A stretch of DNA of 64,000 nucleotides from Naegleria gruberi (lineage: Eukaryota). The DNA is taken from assembly GCA_000004985.1 (NCBI GenBank), contig GG738853.1. One strand, written 5' to 3'. Below, piece by piece: positions 6,621 through 20,243 of the stretch. A program made the position numbers and the translations under genes. The number at the start of each line of letters is the position of its first letter. Position 1 is the first letter of the stretch. The notes under the pieces were generated by a model. It had not been told where the DNA came from. It saw only the letters and a list, made by a program, of their open reading frames with translations, and did not search any database.

Positions 6621-7934
6621 ATGATGGGAAGGTTGAGCTATTCTAAGGGCGTACTCTTGATGGCTCTTTTGGTCATTCTCGCTGTGATTGCATGCAGTGA
6701 TAATGTCCATGCTGCTCCAGCTACACCAGCTGATCCAACAAGGAAACAAACAAAGCCAGTTGCAGCTTCCCCAGCCACACCAGCTGCTAAACAAACCAAT
6801 TCATCCATTACGGAAATTTTCACATGTTTTGGAATCAAATCTGATGATAAGAAGGTTTGTAATGGTTTAGGAACTTGTATTGGAAAAGATAAATGTCGTT
6901 GCATGCCTGGAAAAGCTGGTCCAGAATGTAAACACAGTGGCGGTTTACCTCCAAAACCACAACCAAAGATTATCAATTCTCTATCCAAGAATAACTCTAC
7001 AAAGCCAGTAATTAAACCAGCCTCTATTACAGATCCATCCACTAAGAAAAAGGAAATTTTCACATGTTTTGGAATCAAATCTGATGAAAAGAAGGTCTGT
7101 AATGGTAAAGGAACTTGTATTGGAACAGATAAATGTCGCTGCATGCCTGGAAAAGCTGGTCCAGAATGTAAACACAGTGGTGGTTTACCTCCACCAAAAC
7201 CAAAACCCCAACCAAAGATTAAACCAGCCTCTGTTACAGATCCATCCACCAAGAGTAAGGAAATTTTCACATGCTTTGGTATTAAGTCTGACGAAAAGAA
7301 GGTTTGTAATGGTTTAGGAACTTGTATTGGTAAAGATAAATGTCGCTGCATGCCTGGTAAAGCTGGTCCAGAATGTAAGCACAGTGGTGGTTTACCTCCA
7401 AACCCAAAACCACAACCAAAACCACAACCAAAGATTATCAATTCTCCATCCAAGAATAACTCTACAAAGCCAGTAATTAAGCCAGCATCTATTACAGATC
7501 CTTCCACCATTGGTTTACCAATTCCACCAAAACCACAACCAAAACCTTCTCAACAAAAGCGGAAAGAATCTTTAATCAATAACACCATTAAACCTAAAGA
7601 AGTTGAACCAAAGAAGGATATCAAAATAGATGAAAATCCTGAAAAGAAAGAAGACGAAAAGAATAATGAAAAAACAAAAGAGAAGAGTTCACAAAACAAG
7701 AAACTCAAGAGATGTGGAAAGAAAAAGTGCCAGAAGAGAAAGAATAAGAAGGAAACAAATCAAACAACCACCGAAAAGCAAAAGCTTGACACTATTATTA
7801 ATATGATTAGAAAATTGATTGCTTCAAAGAGAAAGCCAAGTCCACAACCAAATCAAACACCTGTTCAATCTGCTAATGGTCAAAAGTCATCTGTAAACAT
7901 TTCCAATATTATTAATGTTGAAAACGAGCATTGA
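6621..7934 (+). CDS. Secreted protein with three tandem 6-Cys EGF-like repeats separated by Pro/Lys-rich linkers, and a lysine-rich C-terminal tail.
   Basis: ATG at 6621. N-terminal signal peptide (MMGRLSYSKGVLLMALLVILAVIACS). Three near-identical units EIFTCFGIKSDxKKVCNGxGTCIGxDKCRCMPGKAGPECKHSGGLPP. The antisense 290-aa ORF (6638-7510) is a repeat artefact. Confidence 0.7.
   Translation: MMGRLSYSKGVLLMALLVILAVIACSDNVHAAPATPADPTRKQTKPVAASPATPAAKQTNSSITEIFTCFGIKSDDKKVCNGLGTCIGKDKCRCMPGKAGPECKHSGGLPPKPQPKIINSLSKNNSTKPVIKPASITDPSTKKKEIFTCFGIKSDEKKVCNGKGTCIGTDKCRCMPGKAGPECKHSGGLPPPKPKPQPKIKPASVTDPSTKSKEIFTCFGIKSDEKKVCNGLGTCIGKDKCRCMPGKAGPECKHSGGLPPNPKPQPKPQPKIINSPSKNNSTKPVIKPASITDPSTIGLPIPPKPQPKPSQQKRKESLINNTIKPKEVEPKKDIKIDENPEKKEDEKNNEKTKEKSSQNKKLKRCGKKKCQKRKNKKETNQTTTEKQKLDTIINMIRKLIASKRKPSPQPNQTPVQSANGQKSSVNISNIINVENEH
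6813..7420. repeat. Three tandem near-identical DNA repeat units (periods about 240 and 207 bp) encoding the EGF-like modules.
   Basis: The string gaaattttcacatg(t/c)tttgg...aaacacagtgg(c/t)ggtttacctcc recurs starting near 6813, 7053 and 7260. Confidence 0.8.
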
Positions 7935-8098
7935 TATTAATAAATATTACTTAACAGGATTGTAAAGTTTGATCCCCATCTTGTAAAATATTAGCAAAAG
8001 AGATGTAGTGGTCTACTGACCGGGGAATTTTCATCATCTCACAAACTTTATTATCACAATTGAGTATATCTTCAATAAACTTTTGTTATTGAAAAAAA

Positions 8099-8908
8099 AT
8101 GCAACACGGCCAAGAGCATCCAGTTTCTCTCTCACTTGTTGATTTTATTTTCTTTCGTGATGAAGATCACTCCACACCATCATTGGAACAATTTCAAACT
8201 CTGATCCGTAATTTCAAGAGGAAAATTAGTGAACCTAGAAGTAGATTTTCCACTAAACAAATCGAAAATTTTGATGATTTACCAATTAAGGAAGAATTAT
8301 TGAGAGGAATTTATGGAAATGGATTGGAAAAAATGTCAGAAATTCAAAAGAAATGCATCTTGCCAATTATTTCATCAGAACCGCCTGTAGATGTACTAGT
8401 TGTGTCTGGAACTGGAACTGGAAAGACATCAAGCTATTGTATTTCAATTATTCAAAGATTGGATACTAGTCGAAAGTTGACTAAACTTTGTCCACAAGCA
8501 ATAGTAATTGTTTCATCGAGGGAATTAGCTTATGGAGTTTCCAGAGTAGTTGAAAATTATGGGAAATATCTGAATGTGAAATCTAAACCTCTAGTTCTCT
8601 CACCAACCAAAGAAATAGATGACAATTGTCATGTGCTTGTAGGAACAGCAGGAATCACGTTGGCTTATCTCAAAAATAGAAAGCTGGATGTTAATCAGTT
8701 GAAAATTCTAATATTTGATGATATAGATGATTCAATATCTGGAAATCAAATTTCATATGACAATATTTGTGACATTTTCAAAAAACTCAAGAAAATTAAT
8801 TTACAAATTTGCATCTATTGTTGTGGAGTGATATCAGAAAAAACACAAGAATTGATTGAAAAAGAGCTTAGAGACCCAGTGATTATTAAACAGGATATTA
8901 GAAAGTGA
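8099..8908 (+). CDS. eIF4A-like DEAD-box protein truncated to the N-terminal RecA domain. Motif II is degenerate (DEAD -> DDID) and motif III SAT is replaced by CCG.
   Basis: Collinear with eIF4A. Q-motif region (GIYGNGLEKMSEIQKKCILPII). Motif I VSGTGTGKT. Motif Ia SSRELAY. The DEAD position reads FDDIDD (nt ~8717-8731). The ORF stops right after the motif-III region; no domain-2 motifs (IV-VI) were found downstream. Confidence 0.6.
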   Translation: MQHGQEHPVSLSLVDFIFFRDEDHSTPSLEQFQTLIRNFKRKISEPRSRFSTKQIENFDDLPIKEELLRGIYGNGLEKMSEIQKKCILPIISSEPPVDVLVVSGTGTGKTSSYCISIIQRLDTSRKLTKLCPQAIVIVSSRELAYGVSRVVENYGKYLNVKSKPLVLSPTKEIDDNCHVLVGTAGITLAYLKNRKLDVNQLKILIFDDIDDSISGNQISYDNICDIFKKLKKINLQICIYCCGVISEKTQELIEKELRDPVIIKQDIRK

Positions 8909-9205
8909 ATATTTATTGGAAAGTGATTATTGGAATCTCGAATGCTTAATGATTCTATTGTAGATCCAATGGAAGCAACAAAAGACATGACTCGGTTATT
9001 TATGGTGTTTCTTTTTTTAGATAAACATAGCAAGACTAGCTGGTGGAGTTGATTTAAAGTGACCATCCCAGCGCTGGGATGGTCGATTGCCGCCAAAAAT
9101 CCCGTTGCCACTGTAGTTCATTGTAGTGTTGAACACTGATCCAGTCCTAATTATAGATTTCTTTCAAATTCTGGAAAGTTTGAGAAAACAGTTGTTAACA
9201 AAATA

Positions 9206-11071
9206 ATGCCACAACTGGCTGTAATAAATGTCACAGATCTGCCACCATTTCATCAAATACCATCATATAAATTCCAAAATACTGACTATTATCGTATAAA
9301 TGATGTTATTAATTCATACTTTGTTAAAAAATCAAATCATTCACCTTCCAAAATATTAGGAACTGTGTTTTGGGGAAGGAGCCATGTAGTTCCCTCCAAG
9401 GAGGCTGGAAAAGAAATCGGAATGGCAATTGATAAAGGACCAGAAACTATAATTGACCTAGCTGCTGTATTTTACTTGATCATGAATGTGACAAGTAGTA
9501 ATAAGGAAACTCAAAGTGTTGTTTTCAATCATATCATCTCCACTCTCAACCCTCCAATTAATAACAATGCTACTCTTCAAGAAATTCCTTCTGAACTTGG
9601 TTCCTGTGATTCGTATTTTGGATTAGAGGAGTATTTTGATGATGAAGAGGATGAAGATGAATCCGATTCCAACTCTTCGAATAAACCTCAATCGACTCAA
9701 AATAACGATTCAATTAATCAAGAAGATATTATGTTAGATGAGGGAAGGGTTAATTCAGATTCCTTACCACCAAATAATCAACGAAATGAAGAATTTCTCC
9801 CCGAATATGTTGTTGTTGAGCAAAGCAATACCCCAATGTCAAATAATTTTATTAACCGTCTGGAATATGATTCGTATTCATCTGCTATTTCTCAAATAAC
9901 AGAAATAATCAATACTCAAAATTTTAGTCACTTCGATCAATTAAGCAATCCATTTTCAAACGTGTGCAGTTACTTTGGAAATAATTTTTCAGTTTCACAA
10001 TTCAATTCAAATAGCCTCTCTCAATTTAGTCAACCAATATTTTCTCAAATACCAACAAATTACACAGAAACATCATCAAGGGTTCCAGTTGACCAAATCA
10101 TCGAAAAAGAGATTGAAAAAGTTATCATCAATGGATTTTCATGTTCACACTGCAATAACCCTGCATCAGTGTACTTTTCAGGGAAGTATTCAGGTATAGA
10201 TAGTCATGATTGTTTTTCAAAATATTCAAGAAACAGATGTAGAATGGATCTAGATTGCTTTGAGAAACTCCTTAAGGCACAAAATCATGATTTGTATCTT
10301 TGGTTTGAATGTTTGTTAAAAACCAGAGAAGGAAGAAAAAAAGTATTTGATATTTTAAATAATGAAGACAGTGAACGAATTAAGGTGCTATTTAAGGAGA
10401 GAAAGCAAACACGTAATGTGGATGATGTGATGTATTGGAAAGATAATAATTTAGTTTCTTTCAAAATTGTGAATAATTTAAGAAAAGAATGTACGCTTAG
10501 TGATGAATTACCACCAACAAAAGATATGAAGACACGAAAGAAAATTATTGATGAAGAAGTGGAAAAAATCTTCAAAATTATTGCTCCCTCAAACGGCATT
10601 GTTGGTTTTATTGCTGATCTACATGTGTCAGTTGAGCAAATCTTGAAATTATATAGATGTCTTGGCGGGAAACAATTACCAAAAACAGTTTATTTCAAAC
10701 TGTGTGTAGATGGACGAGAGATTAATGGCAAGAAACAAATTGCAATTGCCCTTGTTCCTCTTAATCTACGAGATATATTTCCAACTCAAGCAGTCTCATC
10801 TGTTTTCTATATTGGGCTATTTCTTGGATCAGAAACTAAAAGTTCATTACCTGAAACAGTTGGTTCTTTATCGGATAGTCTAAAATTCATCAGCTCAACA
10901 ACATTCGAAAATTCAAACATTAATTTTTTGAAATTCAAATATTTGAAAATGAAGAATTTATTAGATACTATTTATCCAAACAAAACCACAGTCAGAAGTA
11001 GAAGAAGCAATCTTCTTTTGGATCATAGTGGTCATGTATACATGGTAGACATCTGTGTGAGTATTCAATGA
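9206..11071 (+). CDS. Hypothetical protein (621 aa) with an acidic/Ser-rich N-terminal half and a Cys/His-containing C-terminal half.
   Basis: Long ORF with ATG at 9206. Dictyostelid-like composition. No family recognised by eye. The 3' end overlaps the convergent gene at 10961-11641. Confidence 0.5.
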   Translation: MPQLAVINVTDLPPFHQIPSYKFQNTDYYRINDVINSYFVKKSNHSPSKILGTVFWGRSHVVPSKEAGKEIGMAIDKGPETIIDLAAVFYLIMNVTSSNKETQSVVFNHIISTLNPPINNNATLQEIPSELGSCDSYFGLEEYFDDEEDEDESDSNSSNKPQSTQNNDSINQEDIMLDEGRVNSDSLPPNNQRNEEFLPEYVVVEQSNTPMSNNFINRLEYDSYSSAISQITEIINTQNFSHFDQLSNPFSNVCSYFGNNFSVSQFNSNSLSQFSQPIFSQIPTNYTETSSRVPVDQIIEKEIEKVIINGFSCSHCNNPASVYFSGKYSGIDSHDCFSKYSRNRCRMDLDCFEKLLKAQNHDLYLWFECLLKTREGRKKVFDILNNEDSERIKVLFKERKQTRNVDDVMYWKDNNLVSFKIVNNLRKECTLSDELPPTKDMKTRKKIIDEEVEKIFKIIAPSNGIVGFIADLHVSVEQILKLYRCLGGKQLPKTVYFKLCVDGREINGKKQIAIALVPLNLRDIFPTQAVSSVFYIGLFLGSETKSSLPETVGSLSDSLKFISSTTFENSNINFLKFKYLKMKNLLDTIYPNKTTVRSRRSNLLLDHSGHVYMVDICVSIQ

Positions 11072-11641
11072 CACAAAGAGCTTGTCAGCAACACATCGAT
11101 ACTCTGCTTCTCTGAAATATTCTGGAATAATTCCCCCTAACCCTTCGAATTGACTTGCAAGCTCTGACACGTCAACTATGGTGTAATATTTAGTCCAGGA
11201 TGGCTTGGAAAAACTTGGAAAATGAGGATAGTTAAATTCGTACACGATATGAGAAATGTGACCATCTTGTTCTCTAGTTGAGTATGGTGTGTATTCTTCT
11301 TTTCTAATGTACAAATGGGGTGGCATGGTGGCTGACATATAGGTATCGAATACATCTTCAGCACATTCTCCAATAGCAGTTCTTTCAAGTGCCTTTCCAT
11401 GAAGTGGAATGTTGTGGTCATCACAATAGCTTCGGATCTTTCTTTCCATTTTCTGTGCAGCCTCTGTCCTGGATTTGGTGGAGAAGAATGGATGGTTGGT
11501 AGTGAGTGGAGAAACATATGTGGTGACAGGTACCTCATCTGTATACACGAATGGATCAAGTGGATGAGCACGAGGTTTGTAGGTGTTCTTTGCTTTGTTG
11601 GCAGTCTCCTTCTTGGTGCTTCTTGATGTGTGTTTAGGCAT
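10961..11641 (-). CDS. Hypothetical protein (226 aa) with strong C-ending codon bias, suggesting high expression.
   Basis: ORF on the minus strand with ATG at 11641. About 42% GC versus about 33% around it, from preferred codons (TAC, TTC, ATC, AAG). Overlaps the 3' end of the 9206-11071 ORF by about 110 nt. Confidence 0.5.
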   Translation of the reverse strand: MPKHTSRSTKKETANKAKNTYKPRAHPLDPFVYTDEVPVTTYVSPLTTNHPFFSTKSRTEAAQKMERKIRSYCDDHNIPLHGKALERTAIGECAEDVFDTYMSATMPPHLYIRKEEYTPYSTREQDGHISHIVYEFNYPHFPSFSKPSWTKYYTIVDVSELASQFEGLGGIIPEYFREAEYRCVADKLFVSLNTHTDVYHVYMTTMIQKKIASSTSDCGFVWINSI

Positions 11642-12625
11642 GATGATTGTGTGAGTGTGTTGATTGTGTGTTGTTTGATTGACCGGTAAGTGGTCTATGT
11701 GTAATTGGATGTTTTGGTTTTTGTTTTAATGATGATGAACCAACCGACATTGTAGCTTCCACGTTTTATATTTTTTTTTTCACTCCATTAAACTAATTCT
11801 AGGCAGCCATTCATCGAAGCTCCTGTCTTGCTATGTCATTGCCATAACTCTGAATTCGAAACTTATTACAATGTGGTACATACAAAACAATTATTCAAGC
11901 AATCAACAAACCAATTTAGAAATAAAAAATGATGTGTAATGATCCATTTGAGACAATTTCAAAAGTTGTTTGCAGATGCAACAATTACAACTTTGTAGTT
12001 TCGAATAATATAAAAACCTAATTTTACAATTTAGAAGAGATGATTCAACATTTATGTAACATGTGCATTTCACAAATATTCTTGGAAGTTATTACTGTAT
12101 TCACATCAAATTACTATTATTTAGGAATTCAATTCTGACATATTCTTTCATCTCTGAATCCATTGAACTTTGACTAGAGACAGATGGGGAATGATTCCTG
12201 ATAAATTTTTTTAATCCCATCACTTCTTAAATTACAAATCATTTGCCGCTTAAAAATTGTCGAATTACAAAAAGGGTAAAGTTGATTAATTTTAGATAAT
12301 GATGTCTGACAGTATGGCAAATGACGGAACTTGTAACAACTATTTTTTGTGTTGGGTCATCAACATCCAGAATTGTCAGAGTAATCAAGTGGAACAAATC
12401 TCTTCAGGGGCAATCAAAGACTTTGTTTGGATATTCCTTTAATGAATAGCATGTTCTATTCTCGTTGATTGCACAATTGAGTAACAACAACATACTATGG
12501 TGGAACAATAAAACATTTCCCATTAGCATCATCTAGAAAAAAAACAACTCGTTATTACTACCTTGTTGTATACTAAACGAAACTAAACTCTAGTCCTCTA
12601 ATACCACTGCAATCTAGATTTTATA

Positions 12626-13552
12626 ATGACCATGCAATCATCACAATACACTTCACCATTCCTACAATTCAAATTGTCCAAACCGAGCAAAGTTGAGAAA
12701 CCTCAACATCAAATGAAACAACACAATTCACATGTCTTTGTGCACCAAGAACATGTTGCTCCACAACCAAAATCTTCCAATTCATCCAATCCACCAATGA
12801 TGATGCAAAACTATCATTATATACCACCTATTTTTGTGAATAATTCACCTCCTCCATCTCAAATTAGCTCTCAAATCCTTCCTCCACCACAAGAAGCACT
12901 TCAACATCAATTCACAATGTCATCATCTCAGCCACAATATCATCATCAATTCATGACACAACCTGAAAAGAAGGTTAAAAAAGCAAAGAGAACTCAATCA
13001 CCTCCTGTACCTGCTTCACAACAAGCAACTCAACCTGCCTATATTCATTGGAAATTCAATGAAAGTTTCGATAATTCTCCTCAACAATCAACCTCAACAT
13101 CTAGTCTCCCTTCTTCTAACAGCACTGTTGGAAAAAGTACAAACTCTAAAAGATCTAAGAAAGTGAAATATGGTTGTCTGGCATTTTCTCTCTCAGACTG
13201 TACTCTTGTAAATAATATAAATTATCAAAGACCCCATCACAATACTAATAATAATTGGTTACCTTCTTCAAATATCCCAAATTGTAACATTATCCAATCG
13301 AGTCAACCAACATTTCCAATAGAATCCAAAGAATCGAATATACCTTCTAATAATTCCAACAACCAACTTCATGGTATCCTTAATTATTCCAACAACAGCG
13401 AACATTCACTTCACATTGCCAAAAACCAAGAAGCAAACATGGTCAAGAATCAAGAATCGCCATTGACAACCGTTGAAACTTCTCTCTCTCCAAACCAAGT
13501 CTCTCCTAGAGTAATAAGGACAAACATCTCAATAAAAGACATCCTGAATTAA
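12626..13552 (+). CDS. Q/N/S-rich low-complexity protein ending in ...ISIKDILN.
   Basis: ATG at 12626. 308 codons. Poly-Q/N/S composition typical of dictyostelid nuclear proteins. Shares LAFSLSDCTLVNN and a C-terminal KDILN motif with the next gene. Confidence 0.5.
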   Translation: MTMQSSQYTSPFLQFKLSKPSKVEKPQHQMKQHNSHVFVHQEHVAPQPKSSNSSNPPMMMQNYHYIPPIFVNNSPPPSQISSQILPPPQEALQHQFTMSSSQPQYHHQFMTQPEKKVKKAKRTQSPPVPASQQATQPAYIHWKFNESFDNSPQQSTSTSSLPSSNSTVGKSTNSKRSKKVKYGCLAFSLSDCTLVNNINYQRPHHNTNNNWLPSSNIPNCNIIQSSQPTFPIESKESNIPSNNSNNQLHGILNYSNNSEHSLHIAKNQEANMVKNQESPLTTVETSLSPNQVSPRVIRTNISIKDILN

Positions 13553-14147
13553 CGTTTTCAATTGTAAATGGTGTTTGCTTTGGCAATAAGGCTGTCAAAT
13601 ATCGTGCCGATAATATGCCATTAGTGGCCCCAATTTGTTTTTTAAACAACTTTGGGTAGAGAAAGAGGACATGGTGCACAGAATATTCAGTCCTCAATTG
13701 GCAACCAACAGTTGCGTCAATAGCTCACTTCGCTTTGTTTTGTTAAAAACTGCCAAATTATCTAGTCCTCACACACACTTTATAAAAAAACAACTCAACT
13801 AGATCTTACTGGTTTCCACTCATTCATTAGAACAATAAGAGCCTATCAATAATATTATATTATTAGCATTATCATTGAAGGAGGATAAACATCATATATT
13901 AATAACCATTGTACATTCTAAAAATTGCTCCAGACCAAACAAAGATAGGATATTTCGAATTAATACCCTCTTATCTCTCTTGTCTTCCGCAAACCAAAGT
14001 CCTCCCCTACGACAGTCCTACATTAATTTTGAACGTTGGTTAATATATTTAACACGTTATCAACTGATAAAGGCTATTCACACGAAACTTTCCATTATTA
14101 TAACGTGTTGAAAAAACGTGCTAGTTGATTCCAAAAATTCCCCACAA

Positions 14148-15587
14148 ATGCCCAACGAAGAATCTCAGGAAATTTTTCACAACAACTCAACCCACAAAGA
14201 AATGACTTTACATCCAACCATGAGTTGCAGTACATCATCTTCCAGTTCTTCATCGGCAAAGATTCACAATCCTCCTAGTAAGATTGAAAAGAGGAGAGGT
14301 AGACCACCAAAAATCACTTCTCCATTAAGTTATCCTGTCAGATGGCAATTTATGAAAGAAGAGGGAGATGTACATGTTTCAAAAAAACAATCAAATAGAA
14401 ACCGTTATCACAATGATATCAGTATAGTGAATTGTTATGATATGTTTAAAGAAGGAGCTTCTCCAAGAACAGAATCCCCTTCATGCTCTTCTTCCACTTC
14501 ATCACTTGCTCAAACTAACTCTCCTTCATCAATTTCACAACAAACTAGAACGAGTTTTCAACTAACTGAATCATCTAACATGTTGATTGGCTCCCATCCT
14601 CTTCCTCCTCCAACTGCCACAATGTTAAATAATTTCACAAAATCAAATTCTGCTCCATCATCATCACAATATTCTCCAATGAATGATACAACTGCCAATA
14701 CTAATCTACCTAATTACAACAATAATATTAATAATTATAATACTAGTAGTAGCAGAGCATGTCAATATCCAGAACAGCCATCACCTGAATCCTACTTTCT
14801 TAACAATGCTCCTAAGCAACAACCTCCTTTCAATTCATCTCTTCCTCAACAATCATCTCCACTTGTAATACCCTCCTATCCAATGCCAAATACTAATAAT
14901 AATAGTCATTACTTTCCTCCATATTGTACAATACCTCCTCCTCAACAACAACAACAACAGAATATTCAGAATATTAACCAATTTCCAACTCCTATTCAAA
15001 CAAGCCAATTTTCCACTCCAAAGAAACAAGTTTCCCATTCTCCAAAATCAACTCCTTCACCAAGTGCCTCTGTATATCATTCGTGGAAGGTAGATTTGTC
15101 TCCATCAACTTCCCCTTATCAAAAACATGGTGAATTATCCTTCTCTCTGAATGATACTATTCAAGTTAATTCGAACAATTATAAGGTATCAATGACCTCA
15201 AAGAAACCCTCACCTTCCTCATCAGCCACCACCCACTCATGTAATAAGATTTCACCTCCCAAGTTTACAAATCAAATCACAACTACTTCCACAGTAATGA
15301 ATCAGTTCTCAACATCTTCACCACAGAATAATACCATCAGCACCACAATTACTAATACTGCTGAGAAAATACTCTCACCAGCTACAGCAACAGCAGCAAC
15401 ATCGAGTAGTACTTCATTTGTAATACATGATAATTATGTTGAAGAAATTCCATCAGTGGCAGCCACAACAGTAGGAGTGAATAGTTCGACGACCAGTGAT
15501 CAATCAACCACCAACATCTCTTCATCCTCACCTCATCAGAAAACCAGGAGAAGCTCCATGCCTAGCCTTAAAGATATTTTAAATTAA
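14148..15587 (+). CDS. Q/N/S/T-rich low-complexity protein ending in ...PSLKDILN, paralogous to 12626-13552.
   Basis: The ORF track starts at a GTG (14118); first ATG is at 14148. Shared motifs with the upstream gene (LSFSLNDTIQVNS; C-terminal KDILN). Confidence 0.5.
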   Translation: MPNEESQEIFHNNSTHKEMTLHPTMSCSTSSSSSSSAKIHNPPSKIEKRRGRPPKITSPLSYPVRWQFMKEEGDVHVSKKQSNRNRYHNDISIVNCYDMFKEGASPRTESPSCSSSTSSLAQTNSPSSISQQTRTSFQLTESSNMLIGSHPLPPPTATMLNNFTKSNSAPSSSQYSPMNDTTANTNLPNYNNNINNYNTSSSRACQYPEQPSPESYFLNNAPKQQPPFNSSLPQQSSPLVIPSYPMPNTNNNSHYFPPYCTIPPPQQQQQQNIQNINQFPTPIQTSQFSTPKKQVSHSPKSTPSPSASVYHSWKVDLSPSTSPYQKHGELSFSLNDTIQVNSNNYKVSMTSKKPSPSSSATTHSCNKISPPKFTNQITTTSTVMNQFSTSSPQNNTISTTITNTAEKILSPATATAATSSSTSFVIHDNYVEEIPSVAATTVGVNSSTTSDQSTTNISSSSPHQKTRRSSMPSLKDILN

Positions 15588-16587
15588 TAAAAAAAAATAA
15601 GGCAATTTTAAATTTAAATTTTCTTGATGATTAATTTTTATGATTTGGTTTTTGCTCAAGCCTTTGGAAGTTTATTTATTAACTTGGGATTGATGATAAT
15701 TCAAGAGAGATGAATTAAATGGTTGAGGTTTTGAATATAATAAGGCTTTTTCTCAAACCTATTGAAAACTTCACTGTAGATTGGAATTAAAAATCGGAAT
15801 CAAGCTTGCAACTCTATCTCTACGAAATCGTACATATGATCAGCGAACGCAAATTGAAAATGGTGTAGTAGTAGCAGCACGATATTCACAAATTTCTATT
15901 CTGAATCAAATTGGCCCTCCTTGTTCAATTTAGTAGACACCAACACCATACGAAAGTGCTCACAAAAAGAACGGCCTTTTTAATACTTTATAACTGCGTC
16001 TTTGTTACAACAGAAAACCAAGCCATAATTAACAATACAATGTGCCATCTACAACTTTCATGTATTGTCTTTTTGAAAGCAAAGGAGATAGAAAATCATT
16101 CCTGAAAGTATGTTTTGGGATTTTTCAATTTCCAAACTCGAAACACTTTCTCTCATGGAAATCACTCATAATTGATGCTGGTGAATCACCTACTCTTGCC
16201 GGCAGTAAAACAACATCAATTTTAATTGAGGAGATACGGTTACCTAAACAACTCATTCATACAAATTTTCAGCTCCCCTCACTAATATAATTGTAAAGAA
16301 TAACAGTCAACAAATGTCAACATGGTTCAATAATATTAATTAGTGATGATACTCCAGAGTGGCACCTGCGACCTTCACTTGTTGTCAAACTAAATATCGA
16401 CCAAGTGGTATTTATGGTTGGGTAGAGAACAATTTCAATCAAACAAAACAGCATCAAAAATCAAAAAAAAACAATCAGTCCGAAGAACAGTCTCTGATTC
16501 TCATTTTACGGCGTCACTTGTCTTTGTAGCGTATTATTGCACCTTTTAAAACTTGTGGCATCAAAATAACGCAAAAAAAACATCAAG

Positions 16588-18309
16588 ATGCTATCTTTTA
16601 AAGATTTGATCAAGTCCACAACTTCCCATCATGAAGAAGTGAAGGAACAAGAAAGTATTCGAAACCATCACTATAATCAACAAACAATTTTACCATCACA
16701 ATCACATCACCAATCAATAGTTCACCATAATGATAGAATAGAGAACAACAGCACCACTGGTTCACTTTATCAATCCCCGCCACCACCATCACCATTCGAA
16801 AGCTCATCAAATGGCTCCAACAGAAATTTCAATGAAAAGTTCAATCTACCAAGTATTGATACTCTATTGAATTCCAAACCACCAACTTTCTCATCACATT
16901 TGTATAACAACACAGTTTCTAATAACAATTTGGCAACTACCACTTCCACAACTAGATCACCACATCATCATCAACACTATTCAATACCCAACAATAACGG
17001 CACTATCCAACAACAGCAACACTATCAAACAACTGATATCCAAATGCAACGCTCTTATTCATCTTCTTCGGTACAACAACTCGGCACTTCAAACAAGTCT
17101 TATAACCATTATCCACACTCTTCGAATTCTTACAGTGATGCATCTCCTCCTACAAGCAGCAACTTTCTACAACATACCCAATATAATAGTAGCGTAACCC
17201 CAACGATATCTGCCACCACTGAGGGTTACTATCATTCTTCAAAGGGTTTTCCAAATTCATCTAATAATGCCGGTAGAAATTCTGAATTTGGGCAGGGTGT
17301 GTGTCCATCACATTCGAATAATGGTCATAATTATACTGGTTGGCAAAGCACTTCCAAAGAAGTTTCTCCTCCTCCTAGAGTAGTTACATCCTTAACAAAC
17401 ACAGCTTCCTATCCTAATCATCCTCATTACAATACTAATAGAGAAGCAAGACTAAATAGTAGTTTACCCTCACAACAATCCATGTACACTACGGCTACTA
17501 CAGCAACTAGTGAACCAACCCAGCAACACAATACAGCAACACCTTACCACCACTCAACTATTAGAGATTCCATTCCACAATCAAACCAACATGCTGACCA
17601 CCAACAGAAACCAAGATTTGAACATAATCTTTCATTAATACCTTCTTCCTCGCCACATCAATCATTAAGAGGATCATCCACCATACTTTCAACACTCAAT
17701 ACTACAGCTCCCAACAGTACTCAAGCAAATGCTTCCCAACAACAATCATCCCCCATGATGAATGGAAACATGGATGATGAAGAAGGTTTTGATGAAGCTG
17801 GTGGTTCTGGAACCTATCGTTTCAGAAAGGGATGGACAAAGGATGAACACATTCGTTTCCTCATAGGTGTACATCTCTTTGGTCGAGGCAATTGGAAGAA
17901 TATTTCAAAAGTCATTGCAGGTAAATCTCCAAAACAAGTTCAATCACATGCTCAAAAGTATTTCCTCAGACAGGAACAAACTTCCAAGACTAAACGTTCT
18001 ATTCACGATTTCAATCTTGAAGATTTGATAGAATTGTTAAAAGACGCCACTTATAGAAATACCATTCGAGAAGATACCACACAGAAGGGAAGAGATTTGG
18101 AAGATTTAGTCAACCGATTTGAATCTTCTTATTACAAAGACCAGACAAAGAATAATAGTAGTACCAGTAGCTCAGGAGGTGCTTCTGGATCACCATCATC
18201 ACCACATTCACCTGTAACAAATAGTCAATTGGGACGTGTTGATAACTCAACTGGTAAACAACTTGTACCAAATTCCAGAATCAACAAACCAAAAAACAAA
18301 CCTTATTAA
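16588..18309 (+). CDS. Myb/SANT domain protein of the SHAQKYF class, with Q/N/S-rich N-terminal low complexity. Putative transcription factor.
   Basis: ATG at 16588. The Myb repeat is WTKDEHIRFLIGVHLFGRGNWKNISKVIAGKSPKQVQSHAQKYF. The N-terminus MLSFKDLIKS echoes the KDIL motif of the two upstream genes. Confidence 0.7.
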   Translation: MLSFKDLIKSTTSHHEEVKEQESIRNHHYNQQTILPSQSHHQSIVHHNDRIENNSTTGSLYQSPPPPSPFESSSNGSNRNFNEKFNLPSIDTLLNSKPPTFSSHLYNNTVSNNNLATTTSTTRSPHHHQHYSIPNNNGTIQQQQHYQTTDIQMQRSYSSSSVQQLGTSNKSYNHYPHSSNSYSDASPPTSSNFLQHTQYNSSVTPTISATTEGYYHSSKGFPNSSNNAGRNSEFGQGVCPSHSNNGHNYTGWQSTSKEVSPPPRVVTSLTNTASYPNHPHYNTNREARLNSSLPSQQSMYTTATTATSEPTQQHNTATPYHHSTIRDSIPQSNQHADHQQKPRFEHNLSLIPSSSPHQSLRGSSTILSTLNTTAPNSTQANASQQQSSPMMNGNMDDEEGFDEAGGSGTYRFRKGWTKDEHIRFLIGVHLFGRGNWKNISKVIAGKSPKQVQSHAQKYFLRQEQTSKTKRSIHDFNLEDLIELLKDATYRNTIREDTTQKGRDLEDLVNRFESSYYKDQTKNNSSTSSSGGASGSPSSPHSPVTNSQLGRVDNSTGKQLVPNSRINKPKNKPY

Positions 18310-18714: not shown

Positions 18715-20243
18715 ATGGGAGCTTTTGCATCAAAGAAAGATAAAACAGATAACCCTAAAAAACCCCGAAACTCTTCAAATTCTCAACCAACAAATTCCTC
18801 AACAAGTGGTGTCAACAACAATACATCAACTTCATCTTTATCATCTAATTCTTCTACTGGACCTGTGGTAAAGAATTCACTTTCTGTTTTATTGTTGGGA
18901 ACGGGTGAAACTGGTAGGTTTTATATCTCATAGTTTAGTTTGAATAATTAATTGTTTCGTATAAATTTATTCGAAATTAGGTAAATCAACATTATTTAAA
19001 CAACTTGAATTGATTAATGGAGTGGGTATCATTAAAGAAAATGAAAAATCAATGTGGGCTACTCTAATTCATGGCAATGTAATTTCTGACATGAAAACTT
19101 TGATTGGAATTGTTGAGGAAATGGATGTTCAAGAAGTTTCGGATGAAATGCACGAATTAATTCAAGAAATATTAGAATTACCTGATCAAAATGTTACTAT
19201 TAATGAAGAATTATGTGAAAAGTTGAAGAAACTGTGGAATTATGAAGTAGTTAGGGAAGCTTATGATAATAGAGATCAAGCTTTGGATTCTGCTGAATAG
19301 TAAGTTTCTAATAATTTATAGTAATTTAGACGATTTGGGTTTTTAACATTTTCATAACATGAATTTCTCTAATTGTTGTTGACCTTTCGAATAATTATTC
19401 TTTTACAGTCTCTATAATAATATTGATAGAATTGCCAAGCCAGATTACTCACCAACAGTTGATGATGTTCTTCATTGTCGTGTAAAGACACTTGGTGTGC
19501 ATCATGTTGAACTCATGATGGATGGAAACTTTAAATTTAAATTGATTGATGTTGGTAAGTAGTTTCTATAAATGGATTTTGAGAATATTTATTGATTTGT
19601 TTACAATAATTTTTCTATAATTATTATTATAATATTTATAGGTGGTCAACGTTCTGGTAAGTTTTGATGATTTTTCTTGGTAGAATTTAACATTTAAAGA
19701 ACGAAGAAAGTGGCTTGAACGTAAGTTTTTTTATTCGAATTGGATATTTATAGTAATTTAATATTGGAAATGAATAATTGAATGATTGGAATATTGAAAT
19801 AATTTCGAATTGGATGAAAAATAGTCATGTCAGAAGTTGATGCTGTCATTTTCATGACATCTTTAGCTGAATTTGATCAAGAATGTTATGAGGAAAAAGG
19901 ATTTAAACGTGTTGTTGAATCTTTGGAAACATTTGAAAAGGTCATTAACAACAAACTCTTCCAAAAAGTTCCATTCATTCTCATGTTAAATAAGCGTGAC
20001 TTATTCGAGAGGAAGATTGCAAAGAAGAGTTTCAAGAAATATTTCCCAAATTATACAGGTGATGAAAAGAATCCCCAACAATGTATTGATTTCATTTCGA
20101 AAATGTTTTTGGGTAAATGTAAGGAACGATCAACTGATACCATTCTAGTTCAACCTCATTGTGCTATCAGTAAGGAAGAAACAGAACAAATGCTGCAACA
20201 TGCAAAGAACTTTGTAATAGGTCAATACTCAAAGAAGAAGTAG
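18715..20243 (+). CDS. Heterotrimeric G-protein alpha subunit, 6 exons: join(18715..18913, 18981..19299, 19409..19554, 19642..19656, 19700..19720, 19825..20243), about 372 aa.
   Basis: N-myristoylation-type MGAFASK. G1 LLLGTGETGKST is split by intron 1. Switch I is RVKTLGV. G3 DVGGQRSERRKW is encoded across 15-nt and 21-nt micro-exons. G4 NKRD. G5-like region is HCAIS. All introns are GTAAGT/GTAGGT...AG, and frames were checked against the ORF track. Confidence 0.85.

Follow-up and report, generated by a model that had tools for sequence, protein, structure and literature searches.

Three neighboring genes of the heterolobosean Naegleria gruberi raise the question of why proteins that otherwise differ should carry nearly the same short peptide at one of their ends. 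The genes, termed here g1, g2, and g3, lie in tandem on the plus strand of a 64,000-nt stretch of contig GG738853.1 (assembly GCA_000004985.1), which is called the window below, and are carried on a 695,587-bp scaffold. g1 spans 12626..13552 (308 aa; NAEGRDRAFT_64283 / XP_002680497), g2 spans 14148..15587 when counted from its ATG (479 aa; NAEGRDRAFT_46962 / XP_002680498; the mechanical open reading frame [ORF] starts at a GTG at 14118), and g3 spans 16588..18309 (573 aa; NAEGRDRAFT_57252 / XP_002680499). All three had been located by a first-pass annotation of the sequence and are exact matches to annotated “predicted proteins”; no paper in the literature searched names their identifiers. The same annotation had described them as a locally duplicated, Q/N-rich family of nuclear or transcription-regulatory proteins in which a short terminal peptide is conserved, possibly as an interaction or degradation signal. 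We show below that the 7–8-residue peptide is under strong purifying selection in g1, g2, and g3, and we weigh what it might bind.

Purifying selection on a terminal peptide

As the first-pass annotation had it, g1 and g2 both end in KDILN: g1 terminates in RTNISIKDILN and g2 in SSMPSLKDILN, each followed directly by the stop codon. The core motifs are ISIKDILN at 13526..13549 in g1 (stop codon 13550-13552) and PSLKDILN at 15561..15584 in g2 (stop codon 15585-15587), while g3 carries its version at the opposite end of the chain, where MLSFKDLI (16588..16611) opens the N-terminus MLSFKDLIKS. A looser copy of the peptide, LPSIDTLLN, lies further inside g3 (16846..16872, aa 87-95). The Naegleria forms at issue are thus RTNISIKDILN, SSMPSLKDILN, MLSFKDLIKST, and KFNLPSIDTLLNSK, and the consensus across the g1, g2, and g3 peptides is [I/L/P]-S-[I/L/F]-[K/R]-D-[I/L]-[L/I]-(N). 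To gauge how often such a peptide would arise by chance, a strict pattern, S[ILFVM][KR]D[ILVM][ILVM], was scanned over all six-frame segments of ≥60 aa in the window. It matched three times, once per gene and each time at a chain terminus, against 0.28 matches expected (shuffle P(≥3) ~0.0015), and in six-frame scans of 58 kb of related loci it returned only the orthologs of g1, g2, and g3. The probability that two given proteins of such compositions would share their last five residues by chance is ~4e-6. The recurrence of the peptide, one of the claims of the first-pass annotation, is thereby confirmed as above chance.

Next, we looked for the peptide in other species. By sequence search, g1 and g2 are orphans: phmmer searches against 5.8e9 clustered sequences recovered only 97–98% identical copies from the other N. 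gruberi strain, an exhaustive phmmer search with g1 against 1.84e9 representatives found no ortholog outside N. gruberi, and no relative turned up when JGI metagenomes were scanned with an alignment of the g1 orthologs. Orphans of this kind can still be paired across species via synteny, and the N. lovaniensis orthologs were located in this way, as two plus-strand genes, without an annotated function, in the same order upstream of the g3 ortholog. Overall identity between N. gruberi and N. lovaniensis is 35% for g1 and 32% for g2, yet the N. lovaniensis proteins terminate in RTGISIKDILN and RTHISLKDILN, respectively, each again before the stop. Only four blocks are conserved between the two species in g1 and three in g2, and in each protein the C-terminal peptide is among them. 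The conservation of the peptide in orthologs that have diverged past detection bears out another part of the first-pass annotation, and nearly all constraint in these orphan proteins resides in a few short linear motifs.

The codons behind the peptide indicate at which level it is conserved. Between the two species, four of the seven codons of SIKDILN (g1) and of SLKDILN (g2) have changed synonymously and none has changed non-synonymously, in either gene. Moreover, the Ser of the motif is encoded by TCA in g1 and by AGC or AGT in g2, and the 3′ untranslated regions (UTRs) of g1 and g2 are unrelated. Taken together, these observations indicate selection on the peptide rather than on the DNA and exclude gene conversion, or a recent duplication of the g1 and g2 3′ ends, as the source of the likeness.

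The same evidence bears on the view that the shared ends have no dedicated function and reflect either chance in low-complexity proteins or a recent duplication or gene conversion. Such a view could draw on the low complexity of the proteins, on an overall similarity between g1 and g2 that is not significant, and on pN/pS ratios of 0.66 (g1) and 0.82 (g2) between strains. It is at odds, however, with the exact retention of 7–8 residues in proteins that are ~33% identical elsewhere, for which the expectation is ~0.35^7 per gene, with the synonymous codons, differing Ser codon families, and unrelated 3′UTRs, with the window count given above, and with the retention of the g3 motif out to Willaertia. 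We consider it very improbable and effectively refuted.

For g3, a four-species alignment includes N. lovaniensis, N. fowleri, and Willaertia magna. The N-terminal motif reads MLSIRDLL in N. lovaniensis and N. fowleri and MPSIRDLLN in Willaertia, and the internal motif reads LPSIDSLM in N. lovaniensis, LPSIDCLM in N. fowleri, and, in a degenerate form, IPGIDSFA in Willaertia. The alignment has three conserved blocks, namely, the N-terminus, LPSID.L, and a Myb core with its helical extension, so that two of them are conserved islands outside the Myb core, within ~400 disordered residues. For g1 and g2, the species sampling is narrower: the 10.1-kb N. fowleri contig ends within an upstream G-alpha gene, short of the g1 and g2 positions, and no g1- or g2-like gene was found within 10 kb of the Willaertia g3 locus.

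The peptide is thus kept in genes whose other residues change quickly. In another strain of N. gruberi (ENA contig L001), g1 and g2 are present with protein identities of 98% and 97%, and all strain indels within the ORFs are of 3 nt (one in g1, three in g2), while those in intergenic sequence are mostly not multiples of three (1, 2, 4, 5, and 10 nt). Together with the pN/pS ratios, this indicates that the reading frames are maintained while constraint over most of either protein is weak. g1, g2, and g3 are genuine, rapidly evolving, and mainly disordered protein genes. Against this background, we consider it very probable that the terminal peptide functions as a short linear motif.

A candidate docking peptide for Tup/Groucho-like corepressors

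What such a motif would do can be approached through its likeness to known peptides. Of the two roles raised by the first-pass annotation, interaction is the more specific and likelier reading, judging from the match with MATalpha2 and with TN and eh1 peptides. We tentatively propose, with a confidence that stays somewhat below even, that the peptide may be a Phe-less motif of the eh1 type that docks onto a Tup/Groucho-like WD40 corepressor in the manner of MATalpha2. The peptide would fold as a short amphipathic helix and plug the central pore of the WD40 propeller; g3, with its Myb domain, and probably g2, with its AT-hook, would bring the corepressor to DNA, leading to transcriptional repression, while g1 would serve as an adaptor or cofactor, or else compete for the same pocket.

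The Groucho-interaction motif eh1 (Engrailed homology 1, also called octapeptide) is described as FxIxxIL, and the Groucho-binding TN motif of NK2 proteins as TPFSVKDILNLE, i.e., of the form TPFSVKDILNL (PMC2570084). The hydrophobic spacing of eh1 (positions 1, 3, 6, and 7) is found in ISIKDIL of g1, in ISLKDIL of N. lovaniensis g2, and in LSFKDLI and LSIRDLL of g3, while N. gruberi g2 and the internal copy of g3 have Pro at position 1 and Met or Leu one residue upstream. In the AlphaFold2 (AF2) model of g1, which is otherwise disordered (mean predicted local distance difference test score [pLDDT] of 40), the sole DSSP helix, aa 303-307, is IKDIL, and in the g3 model the N-terminal motif forms a helix at aa 4-9 (mean pLDDT 68 over aa 1-10). 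Both predictions agree with the binding mode of eh1, a short amphipathic helix lodged in the WD40 pore of TLE1 (PMC4901127). The setting typical of eh1, a disordered region of a protein with a transcription factor domain, with diverged flanks, is seen in g3; in g1 and g2, the motif is likewise conserved over its flanks, and a transcription factor domain is only suggested, by the AT-hook-like block of g2. Conservation amid diverging flanks is also the criterion by which Copley (2016) selected eh1 candidates in ichthyosporeans (PMC4943189).

The closest precedent for a motif without the initial aromatic is MATalpha2 of budding yeasts, of which residues 1-13 are MNKIPIKDLLNPQ, with the N-terminus MNKIPIKDLLN (PMC10163088 Table 2; PMC2817886). 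When Komachi et al. (1994) screened for Tup1 interaction, MATalpha2 positions 4, 9, and 10 were hit (PMC4901127); these residues, Ile4, Leu9, and Leu10, are needed genetically for binding to the Tup1 WD40 domain. Bürglin and Affolter considered these sites a modified eh1 (IxIxxLL) in which Ile replaces F/Y/H and which binds Tup1 (PMC4901127; PMC4943189 section 6). ISIKDILN, ISLKDILN, LSIRDLL, and PSIRDLLN all have aliphatic residues at the equivalents of these three positions, are spaced as in eh1, and lack an initial aromatic. The extreme N-terminal placement of the MATalpha2 motif is matched by g3, in which the motif occupies residues 2-8, after Met1, in all four species; in g1 and g2, the motif is C-terminal.

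Candidate partners have been reported as well. N. gruberi encodes a Tup with a Tup_N domain and a WD40 protein at the base of the Groucho clade (Copley 2016; PMC4943189), and the latter has Leu at one of two pocket-defining positions (PMC4943189). In the same paper, a structural argument was made that Tup-type pockets should accept eh1-like peptides without the initial Phe, and the aliphatic residue or Pro found here at position 1 fits this argument (PMC4943189).

Several points weigh against a corepressor-docking role, however. Position 1, where eh1 is defined by an aromatic (F, rarely Y or H), is always I, L, or P, and the peptide is therefore not classed as a canonical eh1. The C-terminal placement in g1 and g2 is unlike that in MATalpha2 and in most eh1 sites, g1 has no recognizable DNA-binding domain, and the internal g3 copy has degenerated in Willaertia. 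The peptide by itself is not diagnostic either: a degenerate DNA pattern for IS[ILFM]KDI[LF]N followed by a stop (nine codons) matched >120 times in JGI metagenomes (84 loci listed), always by chance and in short or unrelated ORFs. Helices of the Phi-x-x-Phi-Phi type (Phi, a hydrophobic residue) serve many unrelated interaction systems. The motif is short, and its likeness to known peptides was noticed before it was checked against papers, so that a look-elsewhere effect applies. Lastly, Copley’s scan of the N. gruberi proteome with an eh1 hidden Markov model gave no significant matches associated with transcription factors (PMC4943189). The model was Phe-centered, which would account for its missing Phe-less peptides, but the negative outcome still counts.

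Alternatively, the peptide could be a functional amphipathic Phi-x-x-Phi-Phi helix with another partner, for instance a domain of the co-activator or Mediator type (LxxLL-like or transactivation domain-like) or a Naegleria-specific hub, and its likeness to eh1 and MATalpha2 would have arisen by convergence within a very small space of sequences. The conservation and the predicted short helix fit this alternative equally, canonical eh1 requires the F/Y/H at position 1 that is absent here, and LxxLL-like patterns easily arise by chance (Copley, PMC4943189). Convergence would, however, have to extend beyond the hydrophobic residues, since Ser at position 2, K/R-D at positions 4 and 5, and the trailing N also match TN (FSVKDILN) and MATalpha2 (IPIKDLLN). 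Placement at a chain end and in DNA-binding hosts likewise has parallels in the known cases, and the cognate corepressors are reported from the N. gruberi genome (PMC4943189). Overall, we regard a different partner as possible but rather unlikely.

A signal for trafficking or stability, i.e., an atypical nuclear localization signal (NLS) or a terminal degron of short-lived regulators, seems to us improbable. It has a precedent in the same yeast protein: MATalpha2 residues 1-13 are listed as an atypical NLS (PMC2817886), and the N-terminal domain that binds Tup1 also holds the degradation element Deg1, so that degradation elements coincide with corepressor sites and Tup1 binding protects the protein from turnover (PMC4591686). 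In g1 and g2 the motif closes the chain and in g3 it opens it, and chain ends are where degrons often act. An end-dependent degron would nevertheless leave the internal copy of g3 (aa 87-95) unexplained, the variation of g3 residue 2 (L in Naegleria, P in Willaertia) speaks against an N-end-rule signal, and nuclear import could already be served by the basic clusters of g1 and g2 or by the AT-hook. We also know of no described C-degron class ending in -ILN, which further counts against a degron.

Other motif classes were weighed and set aside. Peroxisomal targeting signal 1 (PTS1), KDEL, and PDZ ligands call for other C-terminal residues, and the ERF-associated amphiphilic repression (EAR) motifs LxLxL and DLNxxP have a different spacing. 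A SUMO-interacting motif needs three or four successive aliphatic residues, an LC3-interacting region needs an aromatic, and among these peptides only that of N. gruberi g3 has one, the fourth hydrophobic position of a Crm1 nuclear export signal is missing here, and the Ala-Ala core required for a Mad1-type Sin3-interaction domain is absent.

The three proteins and their neighborhood

Among the three hosts of the peptide, g3 is a bona fide SHAQKYF-class single-Myb protein, as its first reading had suggested. Its Myb DNA-binding domain (17824..17964, aa 413-459) matches Pfam PF00249 (E=1e-11; 45.1 bits vs a cutoff of 24.4), and the SHAQKYF signature at aa 453-459 is invariant in 14 relatives. 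The AF2 model built from the 14-sequence alignment has pLDDT 86–98 over aa 410-520, with a folded core reaching ~aa 525 and Myb helices at 418-431, 436-442, and 448-462 (pLDDT >90); outside this core, it is disordered (pLDDT <50) save for the N-terminal helix described above. In a Foldseek search of the PDB with this model, the top matches were Myb/SANT chains, all with E>0.1, these weak scores being due to the large disordered share of the query. Besides the orthologs in N. lovaniensis, N. fowleri, and Willaertia magna, there are relatives of g3 in Acrasis and Andalucia, and the more distant matches are plant proteins.

Further motifs accompany the Myb domain in this family. All four Vahlkampfiid orthologs keep a C-terminal KPY tripeptide (18298..18306, plus strand, in N. 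gruberi), and they end in KPY or KPYN despite divergent low-complexity tails, which makes it a second terminal micro-motif. Separately, a 615-aa SHAQKYF Myb relative from a Logan assembly (P0009), with its Myb domain near the N-terminus, has downstream of it the segment FHLPHISSLLND, strikingly like the internal FNLPSIDTLLNS of g3; from this likeness, the LP.I..LLN peptide may predate the Naegleria/Willaertia clade. Four other Myb relatives (P0010, P0016, P0017, and P0018, the Acrasis kona protein included) have in common a Cys/His-rich block that precedes the Myb domain, YND(R/K)G(Y/H).ICG.MNQH.(K/R)PC(Q/K)RIG.CPFH, which looks like a zinc-binding module and does not occur in g3.

g1 and g2 had no Pfam match, with no family at E≤1 for g2. 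The three internal g1 blocks are TSPFLQFKL near the N-terminus (12650..12676), AYIHWKF (13037..13057), and KYGCLAFSLSDCTLVNNINYQRP (13166..13234), the last of which has the basic cluster KRSKKVK just before it; their N. lovaniensis counterparts are TSPFFEFKV, AYIHWRL, and KYGSLAFSLGDLTLVNNMNYQKP, which gives the patterns TSPF.+FK, AYIHW(K/R), and KYG.LAFSL.D.TLVNN.NYQ.P. In g2, the conserved blocks are the AT-hook-like basic stretch KIEKRRGRPPK (14280..14312; RIEKRKRGRPRK in N. lovaniensis) and PVRWQF (14334..14351; PVQWEF in N. lovaniensis, hence PV.W.F), while KHGELSFSLNDTIQVNSNNYK (15123..15185), which resembles the FSL block of g1, is only loosely kept in N. lovaniensis as SPISMTISNTTLFSTSTWN. 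All lie on the plus strand, and AF2 leaves the conserved internal blocks of both proteins unfolded. The RGRP core of g2 and its basic flanks correspond to an AT-hook in both species; no curated Pfam profile matched it at E≤1, a weak negative for so short a motif. With the Myb domain of g3, the conserved KRRGRPPK of g2, and conserved basic clusters in g1, the nuclear or transcription-related look attributed to these genes is supported.

Their description as Q/N-rich is accurate only roughly. Q+N account for 16–21% of residues in g1, g2, and g3, while S+T+P dominate with 32–41% and Ser is the most frequent residue in all three, so that g1 is better described as S/N/P/Q-rich and g2 as S/P/T/N-rich. 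This composition is visible in the DNA: GC skew falls to -0.28 to -0.32 over positions 12000-18000, the extreme of the window, and coincides exactly with the three S/P/T/N/Q-rich plus-strand genes, because the sense strand of this low-complexity coding sequence is C-rich.

The family relationship proposed for the three genes is not supported. Apart from the 6–7-residue peptide, g3 is not similar to either g1 or g2; it is an old, widely conserved Myb gene, and a paralogy common to all three is rejected. The internal motifs said to be shared by g1 and g2 are present (AYIHWKF, to be compared with PVRWQF and YHSWKV of g2, and KYGCLAFSLSDCTLVNNINY vs KHGELSFSLNDTIQVNSNNY), and are colinear, but their similarity is not clearly above chance: the shuffle P value of the ungapped high-scoring segment pair is 0.1, hhalign gives E=0.01 with a probability of 4%, and BLASTP has its best match (E=0.02) on another segment and none at the internal motifs. 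From the colinear short motifs, a paralogy of g1 and g2 thus seems plausible, if statistically weak.

The order g1-g2-g3 is conserved within the genus. Upstream lies a gene for a 2062-aa protein with leucine-rich repeat (LRR), IQ, RGS, and RhoGEF domains that is syntenic with N. lovaniensis, and downstream of g3 an intron-containing G-alpha gene (18965-20228, plus strand) is conserved in position. An extra minus-strand G-alpha gene lies between g2 and g3 in N. lovaniensis (L002 6601-8234) and is also present in N. fowleri (L003 148-715); tblastn found no trace of it in the 1-kb g2-g3 spacer of N. gruberi (15588-16587), its only match being the G-alpha gene at 18965-20228. Conversely, four ORFs between the RhoGEF/RGS/LRR gene and g1 in N. 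gruberi (6621-11641) are absent from the corresponding 1.5-kb interval of N. lovaniensis (L002 1921-3471), suggesting that sequence was inserted or deleted in one lineage.

The first of these ORFs (6621-7934, plus strand; 437 aa) has a signal-peptide-like N-terminus and Pfam matches to EGF_2 and EGF_Teneurin; it consists of three ~75-aa tandem EGF-like repeats, EIFTCFGIKSD.KKVCNG.GTCIG.DKCRCMPGKAGPECKHSGGLPP, followed by a K/E/N-rich tail. The second (8099-8908, plus strand; 269 aa) has only the N-terminal domain of a DEAD-box helicase (PF00270, E=6e-20) and may represent either a truncated gene or the initial exon of one that is split. The remaining two, a 621-aa ORF (9206-11071, plus strand) and a 226-aa ORF that overlaps it on the minus strand (10961-11641), have no Pfam match.

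Comparison with known repressor peptides and Myb proteins

In animals and fungi, Groucho/TLE and Tup1 serve as central corepressors, and their recruitment by a peptide in the propeller pore may be ancient or may have evolved separately. That N. gruberi has a Tup as well as a Groucho-like protein of basal position was taken to argue for an origin in the eukaryotic ancestor (Copley 2016; PMC4943189), an inference left without a functional counterpart because no interaction motif was found in Naegleria transcription factors (Copley 2016). A Phe-less motif of the eh1/MATalpha2 type in a discobid protist is, to our knowledge, unreported in the literature searched. If it does dock as proposed, it would supply the partner motifs that Copley (2016) sought in Naegleria without success, and the three genes named here, one of them a Myb transcription factor, offer concrete conserved candidates of 7–8 residues that make the question directly testable. 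By extension, docking of eh1-type peptides (Phi-S-Phi-x-x-Phi-Phi) on Tup/Groucho propellers would not be an opisthokont invention; it would operate in Discoba and plausibly date to the last eukaryotic common ancestor, with the peptide used in Naegleria by a SHAQKYF Myb and also by two disordered proteins restricted to the lineage, which might be adaptors or else decoys titrating the corepressor. We offer this broader scenario as a speculative one and consider it possible but rather unlikely.

As a Myb protein, g3 has the same Myb signature, with a conserved helical extension, as the CCA1/RVE/DIV-type SHAQKYF Mybs of plants and “Myb-like protein J” of Dictyostelium. Relative to these plant and amoebozoan proteins, the Vahlkampfiid orthologs add the N-terminal eh1-like peptide, the internal LPSID.LL, and the C-terminal KPY, none of which we know from plant or amoebozoan SHAQKYF Mybs.

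For the peptide itself, three known systems can be compared. The WRPW peptide of Hairy/HES and Runt proteins also docks a corepressor from the very C-terminus, like the motif of g1 and g2, but its sequence is wholly different, it binds in an extended form, and no WRPW occurs in g1, g2, or g3. The TN motif of NK2 proteins (FSVKDILN) is identical in Ser at position 2 and in the KDILN tail and has the same hydrophobic spacing, and a short helix is predicted here; as in the eh1/TN motifs of holozoan transcription factors, the peptide sits in a disordered region beside a DNA-binding domain and is kept while its flanks diverge. It differs from them in that the defining Phe (or Tyr/His) of position 1 gives way to Ile, Leu, or Pro, and in its occurrence in a lineage far outside Holozoa. 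MATalpha2 is a fungal homeodomain protein, while the putative Tup-binding peptides here belong to a Myb factor (g3), an AT-hook-like protein (g2), and an orphan (g1) in a heterolobosean (Discoba); the Naegleria peptides also have Ser for Pro at position 2 and are C-terminal in g1 and g2. Still, the MATalpha2 peptide IPIKDLLN is near-identical to ISIKDILN of g1, to ISLKDILN of N. lovaniensis g2, and to MPSIRDLLN of Willaertia g3, and in g3, as in MATalpha2, the host is a sequence-specific DNA-binding protein and the motif lies at its extreme N-terminus.

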